From IMG/VR virus record IMGVR_UViG_3300046051_000062: a stretch of DNA of 64,000 bases; one strand, given 5' to 3'. Position 1 is the first letter of the stretch, and every line of letters begins with the position of its first letter. Below the pieces are notes generated by a model. That model was not told where the DNA came from and made no database searches. It saw nothing but the letters and a program-made list of their open reading frames with translations. This stretch comes from a virus. Positions 15,936-59,866 of this stretch are shown here, one piece after another. The translations under genes were made by a program, and so were the position numbers.

Positions 15936-16111
15936 AAGCCGAAGGCGACTGCCCCGACTGCGGTAAGGCCGTCGGGGTACATATCGCGGGGGACCTCGCC
16001 TCGATGTTCAAAAGCAGCATCGAGCAGTTCATGGGCCGGGACGGCAACGCAATGCGTTGCTCGAACTGCGGCAAGTACGTCGAGCCCGCAGGCGTGTCCA
16101 TCGAGGAGTAA
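15932..16111 (+). CDS. Small zinc-finger protein
   Basis: CPDCG...CSNCG; ATGA overlap with the upstream gene. Confidence 0.65.
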   Translation: MKAEGDCPDCGKAVGVHIAGDLASMFKSSIEQFMGRDGNAMRCSNCGKYVEPAGVSIEE

Positions 16112-16119
16112 CAGTACGC

Positions 16120-17031
16120 ATGTCGAACGGGACCGAGTTCGAGGCGTTCGAGGCGTTCGAGGCGTACTACGACGAGGCCAAGGGGAACATCGACCAGCGA
16201 ATCACTGAAATCCTCGCCGACAACGAGGAGTTCACGATCAAGCGCCGGATGCTCGAACACTCCACGCGGGGGGGCAAGCGGCTTCGCCCGGTGTTGACCA
16301 TGCTGGTCAGTGACGTGTACGGTTCGCCCTACGACAAGGCCATCAACCACGCCGCCATCGTGGAACTCATCCATAACGCCTCGCTGGTCGCCGATGACAG
16401 AGCCGATAACGACGCGACCCGGCGTGGGGCGCCGGCCCTCTGGAAAATCATCGAGAAACTGCCTCTCGGTCGGAGGGGGCACAAGTTCATCACGGGCGCG
16501 ACCGTGATGGCCGAGAACGGCCTGGTGGCGCTCGCGTTCCAACTCGCAGCGGAACACGATGTCGCCCAGGCGGTCGCCCACGGGATGCGCAAACTCGTGG
16601 ACGGCTTTTTCCTCGAAGGAGCCAACGTGTTCGAGGGAGTCGTCGGCGGCGGGTACGACAAGTACGTCGAAATCAACAAGGCCAAGACCGGCGGACTGTT
16701 CGCCCTCGCAGCCTGGATGCCCGCCACCTACGTCGATGCCCCCGAGGAACAGGTAGACGCCGCCCGCAAGTACGGCGAGACACTCGGTATCCTCTACCAA
16801 ATCGCAGACGACATCGCGGACGACGACCTGCCGTCGTACATCCCCGACCCGGCGGAGGAACTGGAGAAGTGGTACGACAAGGCACAGGAGCAGGTAGAGC
16901 GGATGCCGCCCGACGAAAAGGAGGACCTGCTCCGGGCTGCCCCCGCGTGGGTAGTTTACAGGATGTTCGAGCAAGAGGAAATGTTGGGGGAAATCGAGCC
17001 GTCGTTTCTCCCACCAGCGAAGGAGGTGTAG
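16120..17031 (+). CDS. Polyprenyl diphosphate synthase (trans-IPPS family)
   Basis: GGKRLRP, ELIHNASLVADDRAD..RRG (first Asp-rich motif), KTGGLF, YQIADDIAD (second Asp-rich motif). Confidence 0.92.
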   Translation: MSNGTEFEAFEAFEAYYDEAKGNIDQRITEILADNEEFTIKRRMLEHSTRGGKRLRPVLTMLVSDVYGSPYDKAINHAAIVELIHNASLVADDRADNDATRRGAPALWKIIEKLPLGRRGHKFITGATVMAENGLVALAFQLAAEHDVAQAVAHGMRKLVDGFFLEGANVFEGVVGGGYDKYVEINKAKTGGLFALAAWMPATYVDAPEEQVDAARKYGETLGILYQIADDIADDDLPSYIPDPAEELEKWYDKAQEQVERMPPDEKEDLLRAAPAWVVYRMFEQEEMLGEIEPSFLPPAKEV

Positions 17032-20055: not shown

Positions 20056-21642
20056 ATGGCCGAGGAACTCGACGCGAAGACCAAGCGGAAACTCAACTCG
20101 GGGTTCGCCAAGCGCATCGAGGAGCAGGGTGGTTCGCCCGTGGATGCGCTCATCGAGGTCAAGGCCGGGGAGGTTGACGAAACCATCCAGGCGCTCGGCG
20201 GCCTCGCCACCATCGACCCGGACGGGACGGGCGTCATCGGAAACACGTTCATCCCCGCGACCATCGACACACAGGACCTCCCGGAGATAACCTCCATCCC
20301 AACGGTCAAGCGCGTCCACCAGGACCAGAAGGTCGGAGTAAAAGCGGGCGATGTGGGCGGGCTGGACTTCCCCACGCTCGCCCCGGGGAAAGACCCTGTC
20401 CGCACCGTCATCTCCGACGCGGTGTATGAGATGTACGGAGCCAGGGACAAGTACGTTGGCAACGTCGGCATCAGCCGCGTCGAGGCCCCCCGCCTCAACT
20501 TCGCACAACTCCCCCCCGGGGACCCGGTGCAGACGGCGTTCTCTGCGGTCGAACAACTCTCCCCACAGGCCGACAGCGGCGACAAGTACATCCCGACGGG
20601 TCGGTCGGTCGAGTTCGTCCGCGACGCCTCGCTCACTGACGGCGAACTCAGCGACGACACCGCTGTCGCCATCCTCGACACCGGACTCACCCCCCTGGAA
20701 CCGTCGAATGGGGGGCGCGTACCCCGTCTGGAGTCGCTCGTCCCTGGAGAGGGTCCCCAGGACATGCACGGCCACGGGTCGTGGTGTTCGTTCACCGCAG
20801 CCGGCTACGAAGCCCCCTCAACCTGGGGGACGGTCAACGGCGTCGCGTCCGGCGCGAAGTACGGCCACTTCAAGTGCCTCAACACGTTCCCGGGCTTCGG
20901 AAAGACCTCGTGGATTCTCAAGGCGATGGAGCGCGCCCTAAAGTGGGGCGCGGACGTGATTTCGATGTCCCTCGGCGGGGAGCAGCAAGGCGACGTGGAC
21001 GAGGACCCCTACTGCATCTTCATCGAGGAGAACTGCAAGGAGAACGCGGGCGACGAGGACGGCGCGATTTTCGTTACGGCAGTTTCGAACTCGGGACCCG
21101 ACAAGTGGCAGGTGGGCTCTCCCGGCGTTGCGCCGAAGGCCATCACGGTCGGAGCGTGGTCGCTGGTAGACGACGCCCCCGCCGTGTTCTCCTCGCGCGG
21201 CCCGCAGGGAGGGTGGTACGAGGACAACGACGAGGCGTTCAAGCGGGACCTCAAGGAGAAGGGCGCGACCGAGTTCGTGAAGCCAGATTTGGTTTCACCG
21301 GGGGGTGGCCGCGAGAACGACACCAAGGCACAGAACGCCAACGAGTACCTCCACCAGACCGAAGTGGGGTGGGTCGAAGGCGTGTTCGATGGCCTCAAGG
21401 ACGCGCGGGGATTGATGCAAGGGTCCAGTATGGCGACGCCCCACGCCGCCGGCCTCGTCGCCCGCCTGTACGACCGTGGCATCATCAAGACGGCCAAGGA
21501 GGTCAAGCGAGTGGCCCGCGAGGAGGGCAGCGTCCCCGAGTTCGAGACGGCAGCCGCGAACGCGAACGAGCAGGTCAACGGAAAGAACGTGGCTGTCGGA
21601 TATGGGGTGCTGCGCGAGTCCCTGTTTGCGCCCGACGGGTAG
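20056..21642 (+). CDS. S8 (subtilisin-like) serine protease
   Basis: Catalytic triad: VAILDTG, HGHGSWC, GSSMATPHAAG; N-terminal pro-domain-like region; no signal peptide seen. Confidence 0.92.
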   Translation: MAEELDAKTKRKLNSGFAKRIEEQGGSPVDALIEVKAGEVDETIQALGGLATIDPDGTGVIGNTFIPATIDTQDLPEITSIPTVKRVHQDQKVGVKAGDVGGLDFPTLAPGKDPVRTVISDAVYEMYGARDKYVGNVGISRVEAPRLNFAQLPPGDPVQTAFSAVEQLSPQADSGDKYIPTGRSVEFVRDASLTDGELSDDTAVAILDTGLTPLEPSNGGRVPRLESLVPGEGPQDMHGHGSWCSFTAAGYEAPSTWGTVNGVASGAKYGHFKCLNTFPGFGKTSWILKAMERALKWGADVISMSLGGEQQGDVDEDPYCIFIEENCKENAGDEDGAIFVTAVSNSGPDKWQVGSPGVAPKAITVGAWSLVDDAPAVFSSRGPQGGWYEDNDEAFKRDLKEKGATEFVKPDLVSPGGGRENDTKAQNANEYLHQTEVGWVEGVFDGLKDARGLMQGSSMATPHAAGLVARLYDRGIIKTAKEVKRVAREEGSVPEFETAAANANEQVNGKNVAVGYGVLRESLFAPDG

Positions 21643-28351: not shown

Positions 28352-29845
28352 CTACAATTCCACCCCCATCTCTCGAAGTTCCTCCTCCCACTCCTGGTAG
28401 CGTTCCCGCTTTTCCCGAACGTTCTCGAAGGCCGTGGCGATAGCCGCCTCGCCACCGCCCTCCTCCGCGATGGTCGAGTCCTCCTCGGGCTGTTGTGCCG
28501 CGAGGTAGTTTTCGACCATGCGGTCTTCCATCTCGGCGGGGTTCATCAGCAGGTCGTTGGCGACCCTGGCGTGGTCCTCGTAGGACCCGCCGGCCGACCG
28601 GGAGCCACGGTCGTGGTGGCTCACGGCGTAGGTCGCCGCGCTGTGAATCTCCCACCAGTTCGGGACGTACGCGTCGCCGGCCTGGCTGCGCAGGCGCTTG
28701 CCGGCGTGTCGCGCCAGGTAGTCCGGCAGCCCGAGGTAGGAGTACAGCGCCACCCAGGGGGCGGCGTCCTCGTCCTCGAAGCGCGACCCGAGGTCGTCGG
28801 GGAGGTCGGCGAAGTCCAGGTGGTCGTTCGCCGCCGACTGGATGACGCGAGCCAGTTGGTCGCGCTTTTCCTCCAGGCGGTCCAGCAGGTCCGCCATGAA
28901 CTCGCGCCAGTCCACCCTTCCCTCCACGTCTCCGGCGTACTTCACGACCTCGCGGTCGGTCATGCGGTGGATGCGGTTGTCACACCGCCAGTCGAACCCC
29001 TGGCCGCAGGCCCGAAACGCCCAGTCGGAGTAGAACGACCATTGGATTTCCAGGCCGACGACGACGGGTTCGCGGTCCTCGGCGAACACCGGGCTTTCGA
29101 CGTGCTGGCCGTCGATGAACAGGTCCAGCGTCCCCCGGCCGCCGCCGCGGTCCAGCCGGACTTCGCCGAACACCTTGTCGGCCCATCCACGGTCCTGCAT
29201 CTCGTGGACGAGTTCTTCGAGGGGCTGCTGTGGGTTGATGATGGTGTGGTCGTCGCCCGCGATCTGGTAGAGCGCGTCGTCGGCGATACCGACCTCCTCC
29301 AGTTGCTCGCGCTGGTTGGGGGTGAGATGCTCCTCCTCGAACTCGGCGAAGCTCATCTCCTCCAGCACCTCCGCGATGTCGCTCTGGTCGTAGCCGAACA
29401 GCGACGCGATGGCGTCCTCGTAGGAGGTGTACCCGCCGAGAGCGTCCTCGGCGGCCTGCGGGTTGATGACGGCGTTGTGCTTGGCCGTCTCCATCACGTC
29501 GCCCGTCCGGGGGTGAATCCAGGCAGGCTGGGCGTGGTTCGCCCGGGGCAGTTCCGGGATGAGCGTGTGCAGGCCGCGCTCGGGGAGGACCGAAGGGTCG
29601 AGGTCGCGCTCGATCCCCACGTCGTCCTCGAAGACGTGTTCGACCTGGTTCTGTGCCCAAAACTGCATGCTGGAATGCTGGTTCCAGACGTTCTCGGGCA
29701 GCGTCGCCGCGTCCACGTCCTCATCGTAGGTCGTCAGCCCCGCATACGGGTACACGCCGCCGCCTTCGATTGGTTCTGTGCCGATGCGTTCGGGGTCGTT
29801 GGAGCCGCTGTCGGCTCCGTCTGGATTGTGCTCCTCGGTAGACAT
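28352..29845 (-). CDS. DUF932-like mobile-element protein
   Basis: 497-aa ORF with HTIINPQQ..., VVGLEIQWSFY..., DWRCDN and KYAG pattern, and C-terminal WWEIHSAATYAVSH. Confidence 0.5.
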   Translation of the reverse strand: MSTEEHNPDGADSGSNDPERIGTEPIEGGGVYPYAGLTTYDEDVDAATLPENVWNQHSSMQFWAQNQVEHVFEDDVGIERDLDPSVLPERGLHTLIPELPRANHAQPAWIHPRTGDVMETAKHNAVINPQAAEDALGGYTSYEDAIASLFGYDQSDIAEVLEEMSFAEFEEEHLTPNQREQLEEVGIADDALYQIAGDDHTIINPQQPLEELVHEMQDRGWADKVFGEVRLDRGGGRGTLDLFIDGQHVESPVFAEDREPVVVGLEIQWSFYSDWAFRACGQGFDWRCDNRIHRMTDREVVKYAGDVEGRVDWREFMADLLDRLEEKRDQLARVIQSAANDHLDFADLPDDLGSRFEDEDAAPWVALYSYLGLPDYLARHAGKRLRSQAGDAYVPNWWEIHSAATYAVSHHDRGSRSAGGSYEDHARVANDLLMNPAEMEDRMVENYLAAQQPEEDSTIAEEGGGEAAIATAFENVREKRERYQEWEEELREMGVEL

Positions 29846-29952
29846 CGTTTCGCCCCGGTTTTCCTGCGAGGGTGACCGGAAACCTGATGCCGTCCTGCGG
29901 AGTCGAACCGCAGCGAGTCCACGACGGCGGGTGTCCGTTGGCGGTGGGGGTG

Positions 29953-30201
29953 TCACCGCTCGGGGTCGGTGAACCGTACGAGGCCCGACGCGAACAGCAC
30001 CGGGAAGATGAGGGGGGCGATAGGCCACAGGATCGAGGTGGCGGCGTAGAACACCGTCATCTGGAGCGTCTTGGTGCTCGCCTCCCTGTGTGGGTCGGTG
30101 ACGTAGACGAGCGTGTAGCTGATCGTGTACGACCAGCACGCGACGACCCCACCGAGGTAGGCAACTGCGATGGTGGTGGGGGAGACTCCCAGGAGGGGCA
30201 T
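29953..30201 (-). CDS. Small two-TM membrane protein
   Basis: Two hydrophobic helices, ILWPI motif. Confidence 0.65.
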   Translation of the reverse strand: MPLLGVSPTTIAVAYLGGVVACWSYTISYTLVYVTDPHREASTKTLQMTVFYAATSILWPIAPLIFPVLFASGLVRFTDPER

Positions 30202-30522
30202 CTACTGTCCCTCCGCCTGGAGGTCGGGGTCCGGGGTGTCGAACGCCTCGGAACATAACGCCCGCATTGCGCCCGCCGGGATGGTTCCTGTCCCATGCCG
30301 CCCTCGTGATAGGACCGTCTGCCCCCACGGTTGGTGTTCGAGTTCGGTGAAGAACCACTTGACGACCCCGTGGTCGGGAGCGTACAGTTCGAGCCGGTAG
30401 ACTGTGGTGGTGACGTTTGTCTCGACCCTGTAGAGCGATAAACGATCATGGGATGCGAGACGGGTCCCGTTGTCGTTGTCGGGGGCGTCATCTCGCCGGT
30501 CCGTTGGGTTCTCGTCAGCCAT
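30202..30522 (-). CDS. Hypothetical protein
   Basis: Coupled ORF starting MADENPTD. Confidence 0.6.
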   Translation of the reverse strand: MADENPTDRRDDAPDNDNGTRLASHDRLSLYRVETNVTTTVYRLELYAPDHGVVKWFFTELEHQPWGQTVLSRGRHGTGTIPAGAMRALCSEAFDTPDPDLQAEGQ

Positions 30523-52879: not shown

Positions 52880-53272
52880 TTAGACGGTAATGGTCATGCC
52901 GTCCGTGAAGTCCCGGCGGCCCTCCGGCGTCTCGACGTACCACTCAAAGTCCCGCTGGATCACCGTGTAGCCCGGCGGGGTGTGGCGGTTGATGCGCTGT
53001 TTCGTCGTCCTGGTTCGGTGGCCGCACGAATCCAGGCGGTACGTGTCGCCGTCCCGGACCACCACCGGGCTGTGGTGGTAGTAGTAGACGGTCACGCCGT
53101 CCACTTCAACGATCACGTCCCGGTAGGCGCCCCGGTCGGTGTCGTTGGAGCACCCACAGCGGGGGTGGCCTCGCGGGCCACTCCCGGGCTGGTGGTAGGC
53201 GTCCTGGTTGGTCACGGTACCGCGGTCGCACGCGTCCCAGTAGTCCGGGACGGGTAGGCTCTTGGCCGTCAT
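52880..53272 (-). CDS. Array ORF, phage-type hypothetical
   Basis: TRTTKQRINR...QRDFEWYV...FTDGM pattern; repeat at 53279. Confidence 0.7.
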   Translation of the reverse strand: MTAKSLPVPDYWDACDRGTVTNQDAYHQPGSGPRGHPRCGCSNDTDRGAYRDVIVEVDGVTVYYYHHSPVVVRDGDTYRLDSCGHRTRTTKQRINRHTPPGYTVIQRDFEWYVETPEGRRDFTDGMTITV

Positions 53273-53326
53273 TGTCGAGTCACACCCCTCTCGGGGCCGG
53301 TGGGGGCGGGGAGTGCCCCCGCGCCG

Positions 53327-53494
53327 TTAGCGGGTTATCATCAGCCGGTCGTCCGCACACTCGCCGCAAGCAGCGCGCGGGGCGAGTCCGGCGTAGACAG
53401 TCTCAACCGCTTCGACTTGCCGGTGCCCGCAACCCATGCACTCGAACGTGTACTCGGTCAATTCCGGCGGGCCTCGCTTTGGTGGTTGGGTCAT
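53327..53494 (-). CDS. Array micro-ORF, zinc ribbon (55 aa)
   Basis: FECMGCG...ACGEC; repeat at 53519 plus an extra GGGGGG/CCCCCC hairpin before the ATG. Confidence 0.65.
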   Translation of the reverse strand: MTQPPKRGPPELTEYTFECMGCGHRQVEAVETVYAGLAPRAACGECADDRLMITR

Positions 53495-53566
53495 TATCTC
53501 GGGGGGGTCAACCCCCCGGTCACGCCCTTCTCGGGGCTCTAACGGGGTGGAGGCGGGGACCGCCCG

Positions 53567-53872
53567 TCAGTCGCTCCCCGCGAGACGGGGGGCCATGGCG
53601 GCCAGTCCCGCGACGGCGACGTGCAGGGCGTCGGTGTCTCCATCCATCACTGTTTGCTCGTACACCCGGTCACCGTCGCCGTCGGGGTGATCGAGGAACC
53701 GTACCAGCCGAACGGTCGTACCGCTCCGGTCGGCCCGGTGTATCACCTGAATGTGGACCCGGTGGCGCTCGCACCGCCACGTCCGGGTTCCGTGTCCGTC
53801 GTTCAACGCCCACCCGTCCGGTAGTCGGTCGGCCGGGGTCGGGGCGGGGAGATTCGTGGGTACTGATGTCAT
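53567..53872 (-). CDS. Array ORF, hypothetical
   Basis: Repeat at 53879. Confidence 0.7.
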   Translation of the reverse strand: MTSVPTNLPAPTPADRLPDGWALNDGHGTRTWRCERHRVHIQVIHRADRSGTTVRLVRFLDHPDGDGDRVYEQTVMDGDTDALHVAVAGLAAMAPRLAGSD

Positions 53873-53923
53873 GGTCGGGTCACGCCCCTCTCGGGGCAGG
53901 TGGTTCAGCCCCCCACCGGACGC

Positions 53924-54061
53924 TTACACGTCGGCGGGGTCGTCGGGCGAGTAGTCGGTCCCGGCGTGGGACAGTTGGTCGTCCACGGTCCACCGCGGGT
54001 CCGTGTCGTCGCGGTCGTCCAGCGGTTCGCCTGGGGTCTTGAGTAGGTCGTCCCCTTGCAT
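53924..54061 (-). CDS. Array micro-ORF (45 aa, very acidic)
   Basis: MQGDDLLKTPGEPLDDRDDTDPRW...; repeat at 54067. Confidence 0.6.
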   Translation of the reverse strand: MQGDDLLKTPGEPLDDRDDTDPRWTVDDQLSHAGTDYSPDDPADV

Positions 54062-54100
54062 TGTGAGTCACGCCCCTCTCGGGGCAAAAACGGAGGGTGT

Positions 54101-54421
54101 CTACCCGGGGCGCTGCGCCACGTCTCCGGGTTTGCGCGGGTCCGCGAGTTCTTCGGCCGGGCAGTCAGCGACCACCAGGCCGATTTTCTTCGGCTCGGAG
54201 TGGACCAGCGAGTTGCTCACCGGGTACCAGCCGAGGCGCCGAATCAGGGCGAACACTCCCATGTCCGCCCGCCCGTCCCGAAGGTCGAAGGACAGGATGG
54301 TGGCGTCGCGGTCACGGTTCGGTTCCTGTTCGTCCGGCCCCACGACGACGAAGGACGAATCCACGCCGTCGAGTTCGAGGAGCCGGTCTTGCAGTCGCTC
54401 ATGGTCGGTTATCTCGTCCAT
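54101..54421 (-). CDS. First clear array ORF, hypothetical
   Basis: Repeat at 54429. Confidence 0.7.
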   Translation of the reverse strand: MDEITDHERLQDRLLELDGVDSSFVVVGPDEQEPNRDRDATILSFDLRDGRADMGVFALIRRLGWYPVSNSLVHSEPKKIGLVVADCPAEELADPRKPGDVAQRPG

Positions 54422-54614
54422 GTTGGGACACGCCCCTACTCGGGGCGAAGGGTCGTAGGCGTAAGTGGTGTGCCTACTGCGGTTGGTGGCCGGGGCTTCT
54501 CAGCCCTCCGGCCGGGGGATACCAGCCCCCAGCGTTTCCAGCCCTTGCTCCACCGTCGTTCGGTCGGTAGTATCCACGGTGCTGTATCTCTCTCGCACGG
54601 CCCCTTGCGGGGCC

Positions 54615-55700
54615 TGTCGTCGGTCTGATGATGGCGTATGCCTTCTACGGGCGGTGCCCGCCCACGCTCTCGCGCGGGTGGCGACCGGAGGGGGCTATGC
54701 CCCTCGGTCGAGTCCCGTAGCCGTGAGATTCCTCGCTCCCGTGTGGGGCGCGCGGCGAGAAGCCGACCTGTCGGGTGGGTCCGGTTGCTGGGTTAGGCGG
54801 CCTATTGGGGCCGCGGCCTACAAGCCACGTAGGCCGGTGGGTCCGGGGTATATCCGCCCCCACGCACGCCCGGGTCGGTCCCGGGGGCGATTGGTCAGAC
54901 TGGCGACCTTCTCTCTCCCCTAACGGTAGTATCTCTCAGTCGTTGACGAGTCCGAAAAAAGTCGTCCGAACCTGGATACCGCCCGGGAGTCGTTCGCTCG
55001 AAGGATTGCGAACCGGCGGATTGTGAGCCAGCCGGCAAGGCTCCCGTGCACCGCGCACGGGGCCGAACGGGGTTTCATCAAATCAGGGGTACGGTTTCCC
55101 GTTCGCCCTGCCCGTCCGACGCACGCCCGGGATTCAGGTACATTGAGCCGACACAAGGCCGGTGCTGGAACCGTCACCCGACGTGCGCGGTGTGTCTCCG
55201 ATTCGCGCCCCCGGCCATCCTACGCTTGCGCTTCTTCCGACCCACGGAAGGGTTCGACCCATAGGGTAGGCGTCTCGACAGGGCGCGGATTCACACCGCC
55301 GTGACACCCGGACCCACCGAACGGGTCCGGGCCGTATGCTGTTTCCGACGTGTCGGTTAGACTCCCCGTGGCAATCGGGGGTAGATGCGTGGGGTCGAGA
55401 AGGGTCCGGGCGCCAGGGGGCGGAAGGCCCCCCACCGGGTCCGGGGCGATCACGCCGCCCGGTTCGGGAGCGGGAAGTGGCCACCGTGTGGCGGGTTCCC
55501 CGCCCCCGGGGGGCGGTTTGAACGGTTGCATCCTCCGACGCCTCCGTCCCGCGGATTGGGACGGTCCACGCCGGGCAGCCGTGCCGGGGTACCCCCGCGC
55601 CGGGAATCCGCCCACCTTCGGGCAGATATGCCATACTACGGCATGGTCCGTAATAAGTGTTTCGATTCCGATTTTCAGCCAGTATCGGCGGTGAAATTGC
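54615..55700 (-). ncRNA. Candidate large structured non-coding RNA or leader
   Basis: No acidic ORF in any frame; many perfect hairpins and a 13-bp long-range inverted repeat; strand inferred from the array orientation. Confidence 0.4.
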
Positions 55701-55718
55701 TGTAAGACCCGGCTTTGG

Positions 55719-55740
55719 GAGTTAAAATTATAGTTTTAGC
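55719..55740. promoter_or_regulatory. AT-rich imperfect palindrome (TATA-like and/or protein-binding site)
   Basis: GTTAAAATTATAGTTTTAGC; its left part is repeated (1 mismatch) at 56483-56495. Confidence 0.5.
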
Positions 55741-56024
55741 ACCGGTCTACCCACCGTCACACCAACCCCCGCCTGCGGGGGGTTCCCACCCCCACGCCGT
55801 CCCGCGAATCTACCGCGCGCGCGGGGCACAACCTCCCGCGCACGTCCCACGACATCAACGCCGAGCCATAGAGGGCCTTTAAGTGCGGAAGGACCACCCA
55901 CCACCATCTCGCGCCATGCGGCGCGCTGAACCACGGTGTATAGACCCACACCGTTCGGCGTTTACGGTGACTATCGGACCCTACACCTAAGCCCCGGCGT
56001 CCCGTAGTGCCCAGGTACGAACCC

Positions 56025-56462
56025 ATGGTCCACTCGTTCATTGGCATCCCCACGAAAGCCTTCACCCGCATCGCCATCCGAGAAGATGGGACCGACCGCC
56101 CGTCTCCCGGGAAACTGGAGCGTATCGACAGCATCATGGCCTCCTTCGGCGGGGGCCACGCCTGGCGGTTCGCCCTCGCGGCTGACGAGCAACACACCGA
56201 CAGTTACGAGTACGGATACCTCATCTACGGCGGACGGTCCATCGACCGACACAAGCTCGAATCGCTGGAGGAGGAACTCCAAGAAGCCGGAGTGGACTCC
56301 CCCTGGGTGCGGGCGGAGTCCCTGTGGGTGGACGGCGAGCAACTCGACCGAATGGAGTTCGTCGGGCGCGACCCGGAGGAGGCACTCGCCGCCCTCTCAG
56401 GACTCCGGGACGCCGTGGAAGACAGGATGGATGACGACGACGACCCGCCGACCCTCGGCTGA
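56025..56462 (+). CDS. Hypothetical protein
   Basis: Acidic ORF starting MVHSFIGIP, upstream of the recombinase. Confidence 0.7.
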   Translation: MVHSFIGIPTKAFTRIAIREDGTDRPSPGKLERIDSIMASFGGGHAWRFALAADEQHTDSYEYGYLIYGGRSIDRHKLESLEEELQEAGVDSPWVRAESLWVDGEQLDRMEFVGRDPEEALAALSGLRDAVEDRMDDDDDPPTLG

Positions 56463-56501
56463 CCGTCACCTTCTTGATTTGAGAGTTAAAACTATGCGCC
56501 G

Positions 56502-57422
56502 ATGAGCGTTCAAAACCAGCACGTCGAGGCGTTCCGCAACCGGGTGGTCGGCCGCCGCATCAAGGAGAACACGTACAACGTGTACGAGCCGTGGGTGAAG
56601 CGGTACGAGATGTGGCGCTCCGGGGGCGAGCCGACCCTGGGTGGACTCATCGACTTCGACTCCATGCTGGCCGACGCCGAACGGTCGGAGTACCCCTGGG
56701 AGTACACGACCGGGCGCAAGCAGCCCGACGGGTACGCCTACCGGACCAGGGTCGTCGCCCTTTCGGCCGCGAAGCTGTGGTCCCGAGTCCACTACGACGC
56801 CCGCATCGAGGAGGAGGTCCAACACATCGCCGAAGGCGAACCCGCCCCCTTCGACCCACCATACCTCTCCCGGGACGACGTGGCCCGGGTGCTGGCATCC
56901 GCCGAGGAGAACTGTAACAACCCCGACTGCGAGGCCATGCTCCATCTGACCTACGACGCCCTGCTGCGCTGTGCAGAGGTCGTCACCGTCGAGCGAGAGG
57001 ACATCGACCTCGACAGGGGCACCCTCGACGTGCGTCCCGTGAAGGGCGGCCTCAACATGACGGTGGGCCTCTCCCGGGAGACTGTCGAAGTCCTCCGGTC
57101 GCACCTGCGCGACGACGCGGGACGCGGCAAGGTGTTCACGAACACCTACGGGAACGGATGGAAGCCGACCTCCTGGTCCACGCACTTTCGAGACTACCAC
57201 CACGAGGTCGGTGCCCACTCGTTCGGTCGCCACTCGCCGATTATGCATCGACTGTCGGCTCCGGCGGAGTTCGAGACGATGGACCAGGACGGCGACCCCT
57301 TCGGTCAGACCTACAGGAGGTCCCGTCACCATCACCCCTCGATGACCACCAGGTATGCGCGGCTGTTGGACACCGAGGTCCCCGACTGGGCCGGCGACGA
57401 CACCTCGGGGACAGTCGCCTGA
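56502..57422 (+). CDS. Tyrosine recombinase/integrase
   Basis: Catalytic set: LLR(CAE), VKGG, HSFGR(H), RH..., TTRY. Confidence 0.9.
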   Translation: MSVQNQHVEAFRNRVVGRRIKENTYNVYEPWVKRYEMWRSGGEPTLGGLIDFDSMLADAERSEYPWEYTTGRKQPDGYAYRTRVVALSAAKLWSRVHYDARIEEEVQHIAEGEPAPFDPPYLSRDDVARVLASAEENCNNPDCEAMLHLTYDALLRCAEVVTVEREDIDLDRGTLDVRPVKGGLNMTVGLSRETVEVLRSHLRDDAGRGKVFTNTYGNGWKPTSWSTHFRDYHHEVGAHSFGRHSPIMHRLSAPAEFETMDQDGDPFGQTYRRSRHHHPSMTTRYARLLDTEVPDWAGDDTSGTVA

Positions 57423-57511
57423 AACCGGCCCGCTGGAAGGTGGTTTTCCCCCCGTTGACCCTTGGGGTAGTCTCTATGTCAGCGGTTCAATCCCCCGGGG
57501 GTGGCGGGTGG

Positions 57512-58021
57512 TTAGTAGAGGCCTTTGGGCAGCCATTCGCTGATTGTCATTACCCGGTTTTCATCGGAGTAGACCTTGTAGGTCCGCTCCAGATAGAGCG
57601 CGGACGCCCCGTCGATGAACGTGGGCAGGTCGGTTGCGTCGTGCCAGGTGGCGTCCATTCCGACTATCTCTCGTCGCGTCTCCGCGTACTCCTCGCGCAG
57701 CAGGTCGCCGATGCCGATGTCGCCGGTGACCAGTCGGTCCTCCATCTCGTTGTCGAGTGGGTAGGTGTTCACCTTCGAGGCGGCCCACGCCAGCACGGAG
57801 TCGTCGCGGTCCCGGCGCAGCGCCACCTCTCGCTTGAGGGTCGAGCCGTGGACCTCCCGGTTGAGGATGTCCACTCGGACCTCCCCACGAGTCAGTGCCT
57901 CCAGCATGTGCGTGACGGTGCCGTCGGTCGCCAACAGTAGTCGCTCGACCGGCGAGAGGCTCACCCCGTCGTGGGCGGCCACGGTGGCGAGCATCGAACG
58001 GATGTCGTCGCCTGCTCCCAT
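57512..58021 (-). CDS. Chorismate pyruvate-lyase-like (UbiC/DUF98 family)
   Basis: ERLLLATDGTVTHMLEAL, REVAL, DIGIGDLL, TRREI, RTYKV...ISEWLP. Confidence 0.8.
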   Translation of the reverse strand: MGAGDDIRSMLATVAAHDGVSLSPVERLLLATDGTVTHMLEALTRGEVRVDILNREVHGSTLKREVALRRDRDDSVLAWAASKVNTYPLDNEMEDRLVTGDIGIGDLLREEYAETRREIVGMDATWHDATDLPTFIDGASALYLERTYKVYSDENRVMTISEWLPKGLY

Positions 58022-58023
58022 CC

Positions 58024-58935
58024 TCAGACCCCCGAGACGACCATCAGCACCGCGAGGACGACGGCGTGGATGCTCGTCCAGTGCATGTTCCGCAGGCGGA
58101 CCCGACTGGCGTTGTCCTCGTCGTAGGGGTCCAATGCTTCCAGGCCAAGCATCATCCAGGCCCACACGATTGGCGTGATGGCGAACGCGGGCGACACCCC
58201 CAGGGCGAGATACAGCGCGGGAGCGAGCCCGAGCGCCAGGTACGCCGAGGACAACAACGCGGCGTTCTCCCGCCCGACGAACACCACGGACGTGACTTTT
58301 CCGACCCGTTTGTCGGGGTGGTAGTCGGGGACCCGCGAGACGATGAACCAGGAGATGCAGAACATCGCGTGGACCCATCCAGCACCGACCGCAACCATCG
58401 ACCACCCTCCCGCAAGTACCATGTCGGTGCCGACGACGACGCCGACCAGTGCCGGCAGGACGACCACGATCTCGTTGAACGGACGGTACCCGAGTTTCAG
58501 CGGGGGCACGGAGTAGGCGACGGGCGACCAGATGGCGACCGCGAGCAACACCACCATGGGGGTGCCGAACTGGACGGCGAAATGCGCTCCGATGGCGACG
58601 ACCCCGGCGAGGCCGACCAGCGCGGCGGCGATGGTCCCCAGGACCGTCATCTTCCCCTCGGGGATGACCCGACTGCCGCCGGTCCCCTTGCCGATGCTCT
58701 CCTTGTCCGTTCCGGTGAGCCAGTCGTAGGCGTCGTTCAGCCCGTGGCTGACGATGCCCTGCGCGAGCGCCACCAGCGCCAACGCCAGGCCGCCGTTCAC
58801 CAGGCTCACGTCATACCCGGTGCGGCCCACGGCGATGGCGGCCCCCAGGACGAACGCGGCGACACCCCAGGAGACGACCGGCTTCGGTCGAAACAACTGC
58901 GCGACTCCTCGAACCTGCCGTACTGCGGACTGCAT
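58024..58935 (-). CDS. UbiA-superfamily prenyltransferase, MenA/UBIAD1-like
   Basis: NDAYDWLTGTD, GGSRVI, YSVPPLKLGYR, PDYHPDKRVGKVT; about 9 TM helices. Confidence 0.88.
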   Translation of the reverse strand: MQSAVRQVRGVAQLFRPKPVVSWGVAAFVLGAAIAVGRTGYDVSLVNGGLALALVALAQGIVSHGLNDAYDWLTGTDKESIGKGTGGSRVIPEGKMTVLGTIAAALVGLAGVVAIGAHFAVQFGTPMVVLLAVAIWSPVAYSVPPLKLGYRPFNEIVVVLPALVGVVVGTDMVLAGGWSMVAVGAGWVHAMFCISWFIVSRVPDYHPDKRVGKVTSVVFVGRENAALLSSAYLALGLAPALYLALGVSPAFAITPIVWAWMMLGLEALDPYDEDNASRVRLRNMHWTSIHAVVLAVLMVVSGV

Positions 58936-58981
58936 GTCAGCAACATCGAGTGCCCCCGATGTAAACCTTCACCCCTCGGGA

Positions 58982-59866
58982 CTACCCGTTCAGAAGGTGA
59001 CCCGGCACCCTGGCACGGTCCGCCACGATGCTGGTCCCATCGGTGGCGTACTCGAAGGTTCCTTCTGGGACCTCGTGGAAGTGTTCCATCATCTTCGAGT
59101 TCAGGACGACCAGCCAGAAGTCCGGCAGGTGGCGGTTGGCCCGGCCCTGGATGAGTTCGTGCAGCCGGCGGGCGGCCTCGGACTCGTCCATCGCGGAGGC
59201 GTCGATGCCGTCCCCGCGCCGGGTCCCGGAGTGGTAGCCCGGCTGGTCGGCGAGCATCCGCGTAACGCTGCGACGGCTCTGGAGGTACATGCCCACGGAC
59301 TCCAGCGAACGGTCGACGCTGATGGAGTCCTGGGCGGCCAGTAGTTCTCGCTCGTCGGTGTGGCGCATGGAGAGGACCTCCATCTGGTTTTTGCCCCAAT
59401 CGGTGACCGTCCAGCCCGTCTCCGTCTCCGTGACGAGGCCGATGAGGCCCTCCTCCTCGGTGTGTATCTCGCCACCGACGTTGCCGCCTTTCACCCAGGA
59501 GAGGGCGCCCTCGTAGCCGTCGAAAAAGCCGTAGTTGTACGACACCTGCACGGGCGTGTGCCGCATATCGCGCTGGTTCAGGAACAACACCACCGGCCCG
59601 AAGTTGATGGCGGTCCCGAGCGTCCGGGTGAGCCCACCCGTGACGCCCTTCTCCTCCACAACGTAGCCTTTGTCCTCGATGCCCTCCGGGACCCACCACG
59701 GGAGGTCCTCGACGGGCGTCCCCCGAGGCACGGTCGCGTGCGGCGTCTCGGTGTCGAGACGGCCACGGAAGATGGACGCGGTGTGGCCCTCTATCTCGCC
59801 GGTAGAGAACTCCTGGCCCTGTAACTTCTTGAAACTCGACCCCCGGTAGACGTAGTTACTTACCAT
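58982..59866 (-). CDS. Hypothetical protein, possible ADP-ribosyltransferase fold
   Basis: VYRGSS, GLTRTLGTAINF and TDERE resemble the R-S-E motifs. Confidence 0.4.
   Translation of the reverse strand: MVSNYVYRGSSFKKLQGQEFSTGEIEGHTASIFRGRLDTETPHATVPRGTPVEDLPWWVPEGIEDKGYVVEEKGVTGGLTRTLGTAINFGPVVLFLNQRDMRHTPVQVSYNYGFFDGYEGALSWVKGGNVGGEIHTEEEGLIGLVTETETGWTVTDWGKNQMEVLSMRHTDERELLAAQDSISVDRSLESVGMYLQSRRSVTRMLADQPGYHSGTRRGDGIDASAMDESEAARRLHELIQGRANRHLPDFWLVVLNSKMMEHFHEVPEGTFEYATDGTSIVADRARVPGHLLNG

Follow-up and report, generated by a model that had tools for sequence, protein, structure and literature searches.

A tyrosine recombinase with a variant HxxxRH box and a candidate 24-bp site upstream of its gene in a haloarchaeal element from halite

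The stretch of 64,000 nucleotides analysed here (IMG/VR virus record IMGVR_UViG_3300046051_000062, hereafter the window) belongs to an element that is an uncultured haloarchaeal virus or plasmid of ~90 kb. It carries a tyrosine recombinase gene, int (56502-57422, plus strand), whose 306-residue product Int is placed by profile scores and alignments in a small, hitherto unnamed family, found in metagenomes only and marked by an HxxxRH box. At a probability of about 0.5, Int is the element's own simple tyrosine recombinase, acting at a 24-bp dyad upstream of its gene and unconnected to the hairpins of the array of small genes beyond it. A preliminary description of this DNA, made from the sequence, had pointed to an integron-like layout in which the recombinase might act on those hairpins, and had kept an ordinary integrase or dimer resolvase of the element as its fallback. 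The fallback is the reading favoured here, a conventional duplex candidate site having been found beside int.

The recombinase and its family

The interval 56025-57422, formerly taken for the recombinase gene, holds two genes: int begins at 56502, and 56025-56462 is a separate open reading frame (ORF) of 145 residues in another frame. The recombinase itself is intact, as previously claimed. Int matches Pfam PF00589 with E=6.5e-11 and 42.8 bits (cut-off 27.1), covering profile positions 2-168 of 172, and also matches a PHROG integrase; the invariant residues of its alignments and an AlphaFold model agree with the assignment. The variant box II noted earlier, H-S-F-G-R-H, is encoded at 57216-57233 (plus strand) and comprises H239, R243 and H244. 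It is unchanged in 16 close homologues, and among 26 family members these three residues are invariant or nearly so, with the H-x-x-x-R-H spacing kept throughout. The canonical box reads HxxR, that of Int HxxxR, so that the distance from histidine to arginine is 4 instead of 3; in an alignment with two IntI proteins, the Int box has one residue inserted relative to H-T-L-R-H. Among the 26 members, R156, H239, R243 and H276 are invariant, while K181 and Y285 are conserved in at least 90%, and these six residues are the catalytic candidates of Int suggested by the alignments. A cysteine pair lies at the start of the catalytic domain: C138 is conserved in at least 90% of the 26 members, and both C138 and C143 are invariant in the 16 close homologues.

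The AlphaFold model of Int (predicted local distance difference test score 81) consists of an N-terminal helical core-binding domain and a catalytic domain. In a Foldseek search, the best match of the model is XerA (5hxy, E=2e-10), followed by IntI4 (2e-8) and then by XerD, the Tn1549 Int, the lambda Int core and Cre, and the best structural matches all cover both domains. On this model, Int is a plain two-domain enzyme of the Xer/Cre/TnpI-like kind without an arm-binding domain, for which a length of 306 residues leaves no space. The N-terminal domain of the family contains an insertion of 16 residues (residues 58-76) with a Y-P-W-E motif, which is absent from IntI.

All 25 homologues of Int in a protein collection clustered at 90% are metagenomic. 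When 1.84 billion representatives are searched exhaustively with a profile, 22 clusters reach E<=1e-30; nothing follows down to 1e-17, and the matches from there on are generic recombinases. In a maximum-likelihood tree, 29 members of the Int family form one clade with support 99/97. Because the deep phylogeny of the tyrosine recombinase superfamily is unreliable according to a review of its archaeal members (PMC8371274), the family is placed by the profile scores, the E-value gap and the tree together. The NCBIfam scores of Int lie far below every named family, the best profile being XerA NF040815 with 43.7 bits (cut-off 220). Outside the family, the closest proteins are XerA-like and stay below threshold; two proteins with bona fide XerA scores (P0059 and P0066) fall across a 100/99 branch from the Int family, and the two IntI proteins, nested among XerA-like proteins, also lie across a 100/99 branch. 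Int reaches 31.3 bits against the IntI cut-off of 265 for TIGR02249 and 14.7 against 435 for NF011946. The IntI-specific region of ~44 alignment columns (KYP...RRHH...AGI), defined by Vibrio IntI and IntI1, is gapped in the Int family, and the distance from K181 to H239 is only 58 residues. The remark that no IntI-specific patch is evident therefore holds, and the phylogeny that had been proposed as a check sets the family apart from IntI and XerA alike.

Relatives are also sought among viruses and plasmids. In a tblastn search of 50,697 phage records (E<=0.5), Int finds no match in a haloarchaeal virus; the integrase of HCTV-6, compared with Int, is unrelated; IMG/VR contains no relative of Int, and the plasmid records no haloarchaeal one.

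Among the known systems, Int is most readily compared with the Xer type (NF040815; PDB 5hxy, 4a8e, 1a0p), with which it shares the two-domain architecture, the size, the best structural match and the best NCBIfam profile. The likeness extends to the candidate site, which, like dif, is a short inverted repeat whose spacer measures 6 bp. Int differs from XerA in its score (43.7 bits against 220), its own clade, its HxxxR spacing, the N-terminal insertion and the cysteine pair, and also in being carried by a mobile element rather than encoded at a chromosomal dif site. With the recombinases of SNJ2-type elements (PMC5861418), it shares the setting: both are tyrosine recombinases of haloarchaeal mobile elements, and both have small ORFs upstream that run in the direction of the recombinase gene. 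The SNJ2-type elements of haloarchaeal pleolipoviruses use tRNA genes for integration, and their proviruses are widespread among the genomes of haloarchaea (PMC5861418), whereas the Int family has no tRNA neighbour, a single match in 185,579 genomes, and upstream ORFs that are unrelated orphans or absent; it is this tRNA and provirus context, not a direct sequence comparison, that sets Int apart from the SNJ2 type.

The dyad and the half-site upstream of int

The candidate site of Int is an AT-rich dyad present in one copy, a candidate core recombination site or else a promoter or operator. A flank, CTTTGG (55713-55718), is followed by the left arm (55719-55727), the spacer (55728-55733) and the right arm (55734-55742), so that the dyad spans 24 bp (55719-55742) with arms of 9 bp and a spacer of 6 bp. 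An 18-nt motif occurs exactly twice in the window, where 0 copies are expected: one copy lies within the dyad, and the other is a half-site on the plus strand (56478-56496), made up of the left arm and the first 5 nt of the spacer, which ends 5 nt ahead of the int ATG and is a candidate operator or accessory binding site.

Eight distinct elements encode a similar Int (54-62% identity), namely the window/L008, L001/2, L006/7, L010, L011, L012, L025/26 and L027/28. In all eight, int is preceded at a distance of 0.3-1.4 kb by an orthologous dyad that has the CTTTGG flank, and in seven the half-site is present as well. The core of the dyad arm reads ATACAA in five elements and ATATAA, CTATAA or TTAAAA in one each, with the partner arm altered to match. 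The half-site follows the same variation in 7/8 elements, its core (TTAAAA, ATACAA or ATATAA) tracking that of the dyad of the same element. No gap separates the half-site from the int ATG in L027, and in the other elements the half-site arm ends 9-10 nt upstream. The AT-rich boxes of other promoters in the window start 21-36 nt before the ATG; since the L027 half-site adjoins the ATG, it is not the TATA box of int. Between dyad and half-site lie 267-1379 nt of DNA that is unalignable across the elements and contains 0-2 unrelated orphan ORFs.

As single-stranded DNA, the dyad has a weak predicted fold (-2.6 to -6.6 kcal/mol). A stable single-strand hairpin is rejected as the main reading on this account, and a duplex site for a protein is favoured. 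The dyad may have a role at the RNA level, through long-range pairing of its right arm with the half-site at the start of int; of the four mismatches between the arms, two would permit G.U pairing on the plus strand. Arms resembling those of the dyad are also found near the head of the array in L011, L012 and L026. These are not taken for copies of the dyad, as the window keeps a block of the GATACA type there even though its dyad arms have changed; not co-varying with the dyad arms, the block is treated as a separate promoter-like element.

The proposed action of Int is modelled on the TnpI/IRS system of Tn4430, which is built likewise: its inverted core has a common 9-bp motif, its cleavages are staggered by 6 bp, and additional single motifs bind regulatory subunits (PMC2847244). 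Both systems have an unescorted recombinase with an inverted-repeat core near its own gene, and the dyad and half-site follow the same logic. In Cre/loxP of phage P1, too, the recombinase gene lies beside its own simple site. The correspondence has limits. Here variable DNA of 0.3-1.4 kb separates the half-site from the core, while the Tn4430 site is contiguous within 116 bp; no sequence relationship of TnpI or Cre to Int is detectable beyond the superfamily, and the dyad is a candidate site recognised by sequence comparison. By this model, an Int monomer would sit on each of the two inverted 9-bp arms of the dyad, which lies 0.8 kb ahead of int. Two dyads would then synapse, and strands would be exchanged over the 6-bp spacer by the R-K-H-R-H-Y active site. 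The exchange would resolve multimers of the replicon or circularise the genome; less likely, it would integrate the element into a matching host site. An extra monomer on the half-site, placed 10 nt ahead of the start codon of int, would repress int or help to build a selective synapse, and the array hairpins would be RNA-level or expression signals with no functional link to Int.

The choice between these outcomes depends on the state in which the elements are found. Neither ARAGORN nor Rfam (E<=10) detects a tRNA gene or fragment that could serve as a tRNA-like att in the 64-kb window, and in 13 loci the DNA up to 10 kb from int contains no tRNA gene. No provirus is found among 185,579 species genomes, and the single relative of Int there lies on a 14.9-kb contig of a metagenome-assembled genome (MAG). 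Element DNA flanks the dyad on both sides in all 8 assemblies. The elements are thus observed only unintegrated, which mildly favours multimer resolution or circularisation over integration.

Several observations weigh against a recombination site at the dyad. No other 24 bp of the region are as rich in A+T, and the dyad arms are similar to the TATA box and B recognition element of archaea. Three relatives of Int that have no array (L003, L009 and L014) have no comparable dyad near int, and L006 lacks the half-site. The covariation is overstated by the counts of elements, as there are about four independent arm variants and relatedness inflates the agreement. The arms of dif measure 11 bp and those of loxP 13 bp, beside which 9 bp is short. 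The contigs assembled over 53000-59000 contain no recombinant junction or loose end at the dyad or half-site, a result that is uninformative either way; the contig joints in this interval all lie at array repeats, with a shorter side of 20-35 nt, and are therefore attributed to cross-matching. Two contig ends fall close to the dyad: the L010 contig begins 18 nt left of its dyad, and the match of a low-depth contig from a second halite sample (window 55687-56342) stops 26 nt left of the dyad flank. Variation at the site may have broken the assembly there, or the ends may lie there by chance.

The strongest rival, tentative as it is, makes Int a conventional temperate-virus or plasmid integrase with an unrecognised att, and makes the dyad and half-site a bidirectional promoter and/or operator dividing the early array from the int and late modules. 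Halovirus HF2 offers the precedent. Its intergenic repeats precede early/middle genes and act as promoters, and its module of attP, small protein and integrase, situated between the early/middle and late regions, has a two-way TATA box with inverted repeats (PMC8707807). The present element is likewise haloarchaeal, with repeated intergenic sequences and an integrase that would lie between early and late regions; its dyad arms resemble TATA-type elements ahead of other window genes, a similar GAGA..GATACA block stands at the array head, and the small ORFs that run in the direction of int bring to mind the accessory genes Orf2 and Orf3 of SNJ2 (PMC5861418). The parallel with HF2 is incomplete, since the repeats there are AT-rich promoters of 29-58 bp and here GC hairpins 8-11 nt before the starts, and since the HF2 attP is tRNA-like and none is seen near int here. 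Distances also speak against a promoter: the dyad is never at promoter distance, with the nearest rightward ORF 283-720 nt away and the array head 1.3 kb away, and the half-site is too near the int ATG for a TATA box. Generic TATA boxes, moreover, need no covariation of dyad and half-site within each element. A conventional integrase has to contend with the missing tRNA-like att and provirus, and its supposed accessory ORFs are unrelated between elements and absent from four of them.

A very unlikely alternative treats the dyad and half-site as the borders of a small gene-capture locus, in which the half-site would be attI-like, the dyad would be borne by the cassette, and Int would insert or exchange circles upstream of its own gene. 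The order of a conserved flank, arm/spacer/arm, a variable segment, arm/spacer, unrelated sequence and int is the one expected after a circle with a full site enters a half-palindromic site, and the segment (267-1379 nt with 0, 1 or 2 unrelated orphan ORFs) is conserved on both flanks. The empty state, a half-site alone, is found in none of the elements, and no additional site divides the ORFs where an element has two. With Int proteins 55-60% identical, neutral non-coding DNA should be beyond alignment anyway, and viruses commonly gain genes in intergenic DNA. Finally, a full exchange requires two monomers, for which a true half-site has no room.

Array hairpins

The array consists of about 45-49 small co-oriented genes, each with a hairpin ahead of it (31663-54446, minus strand). 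The G+C content at third codon positions (GC3) delimits these minus-strand genes from ~54.4 kb down to 31.7 kb; the first hairpin lies at 54446, and the first gene begins at 54421. Int is transcribed away from the array, on the plus strand, as had been described. On the mRNA-sense (minus) strand, the repeat reads GCCCC-GAGA-GGGGC followed by GTGA and forms a 5-bp stem with a loop of 4-5 nt, 14-15 nt in all. In 38 of the 49 hairpins between 31.6 and 54.7 kb, the start codon that opens an ORF lies 8-11 nt downstream, against 6.8% of random positions, and the distance from the preceding stop codon varies from 7 to 85 nt. Non-Watson-Crick stem positions across seven elements are G.U on the sense strand in 12 cases and C.A in 4, and double compensatory variants are also seen. 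The fixed start distance, the variable stop distance and the predominance of sense-strand G.U indicate that the hairpin belongs to the start of the downstream gene and most likely acts in RNA.

A different picture is known from integrons, where attC sites are imperfect palindromes of 57-142 nt that follow the ORF, have R and L boxes, an unpaired central spacer and extrahelical bases, and recombine as the folded bottom strand (PMC2727003). The hairpins, at 14-15 nt and in front of the starts, are much shorter, in agreement with the preliminary description, and have no paired boxes, spacer or extrahelical bases. Integrons (IntI1, VchIntIA; TIGR02249; PDB 2a3v) share with the present system the recombinase superfamily, a divergent gene beside co-oriented small genes, and weak sequence and structural similarity; Int differs from their recombinases by the ~44 missing columns, by 31.3 bits against 265, and by its position outside the IntI clade. 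The hairpin core, moreover, has nothing in common with the int-proximal sites.

In the eight elements listed above, int lies downstream of the array or, for L010, at least of the dyad. The remainder of these elements is syntenic as well (small genes, S8 peptidase, polyprenyl synthetase, ParA-type ATPase), and the co-occurrence of int and array therefore reflects common descent. More distant relatives are found without arrays. In L003/4/5 (Int identity 48%) the genes are tightly packed, and in L009 (44%) int stands beside a Toprim protein and a UvrD helicase, with no array in the available DNA of either; in L014 (47%), 4.6 kb of upstream sequence has no hairpins. The Int of L014 (P0024) falls inside the same subclade as the array-linked proteins, with moderate support (93/76). 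L013 is uninformative on this point because its contig stops 1.1 kb upstream of int. The L009 locus (PWGO01000184.1, 3752-7422) is the sole Int relative in the GTDB genomes; it lies on the 14.9-kb contig, from a Syntrophomonadaceae MAG of soda-lake sediment (60.6% G+C), and the neighbours of int, a 642-residue Toprim protein and a 581-residue UvrD-type helicase, form a Gabija-like pair. The contig is probably a mobile element binned wrongly. An exact copy of the 19-nt array motif is absent from IMG/VR, and a metagenome scan for the motif returns ten short contigs, of which L019 and L022 alone are array-like, both too short to reveal whether int is present.

Homologous array genes (30-60% identity; window 42-54 kb compared with L001, L006, L011 and L026) differ in order and are constant in orientation, and sequence comparison indicates that the units have been shuffled over evolutionary time. 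Homologous recombination between the repeats explains the different orders, so the shuffling needs no dedicated enzyme. The idea that Int recombines the array hairpins, folded or duplex, as an integron analogue of an archaeal virus has in its favour the divergent recombinase at the head of a co-oriented array and this orientation-keeping reordering of units, and it is highly improbable given the start-codon linkage, the sense-strand G.U bias (integrons fold the bottom strand), the plain 5-bp stem, the lack of a core in common with the int-proximal sites, the arrayless relatives, P0024 in the array-linked subclade among them, and a co-occurrence accounted for by whole-element synteny. The position, strand and size of the hairpins thus leave the integron-like reading unsupported. 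Gene capture or shuffling driven by Int by either route, at the dyad and half-site as a one-slot locus or at the start-codon hairpins of the array, is very unlikely.

Setting of the element and implications

A gap of ~2 kb separates int from the array. The separation described earlier stands, and the gap is not purely regulatory, as it comprises ~1.3 kb of non-coding DNA together with the 145-residue ORF. From the array head to 55565 (54447-55565), the DNA is GC-rich and non-coding, with no ORF of coding-type GC3. On the minus strand of this stretch (54560-54613), alignment reveals a promoter-like block of the type GAGA..GATACA..CGCGCGTATGCG, kept in seven elements and situated ~75-140 nt ahead of the first array hairpin; this block probably serves the entire array as its promoter and start of transcription. 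Directly left of the dyad lies a conserved non-coding block of ~150 nt (55566-55712), which matches L012 1155-1303 and L001 8605-8732 at 72-82% identity; the remaining non-coding DNA is unalignable. This conserved block could assist the site as an accessory sequence, or it could encode a small RNA or form the leader of an RNA that runs leftwards. Right of the dyad, in the variable segment, the 145-residue ORF (56025-56462, plus strand), supported by the gene call, is co-oriented with int and encodes an acidic orphan protein that has a single homologue among 5.8 billion proteins and no family in Pfam or PHROG. In its place, other elements carry unrelated ORFs or none.

The window has ~65% G+C, and halite metagenomes (three runs of one study) are the only sequencing runs containing the element. 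It has genes in common with haloarchaeal tailed viruses, to which it is tied by a 668-residue protein (28352-30358, minus strand) that matches PHROG 13083 (E=3e-50) and hypothetical proteins of several of these viruses; the HCTV-6 counterpart is gp84, annotated as DUF932. Further genes encode a PrimPol fusion, a ParA/Mrp-type ATPase, an SMC-like ATPase, a subtilase and enzymes of a prenyl pathway. In relatives, the genes for the S8 subtilase and the polyprenyl synthetase are split by inteins with Intein_splicing and LAGLIDADG matches (L001 12970-15873 and 18784-20900; L006 13722-16619), and the window copies (subtilase 20056-21642, synthetase 16057-17031) have none.

In conclusion, the recombinase is now testable, with a named 24-bp candidate site and a half-site that can be compared directly with the array hairpin. 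The array is separable from the recombinase and can be studied by itself as an expression or shuffling signal. If Int did drive gene capture or shuffling after all, archaea and their viruses would have their first analogue of an integron. If Int instead acts at the dyad as the element's own simple recombinase, the compact enzyme and its 24-bp candidate site could be a tool for haloarchaeal genetics, and archaea would gain one more tyrosine recombinase family, with an unusual HxxxRH box, serving as the resolvase or integrase of a ~90-kb element. On that reading, the family would also help to annotate the haloarchaeal elements of halite.

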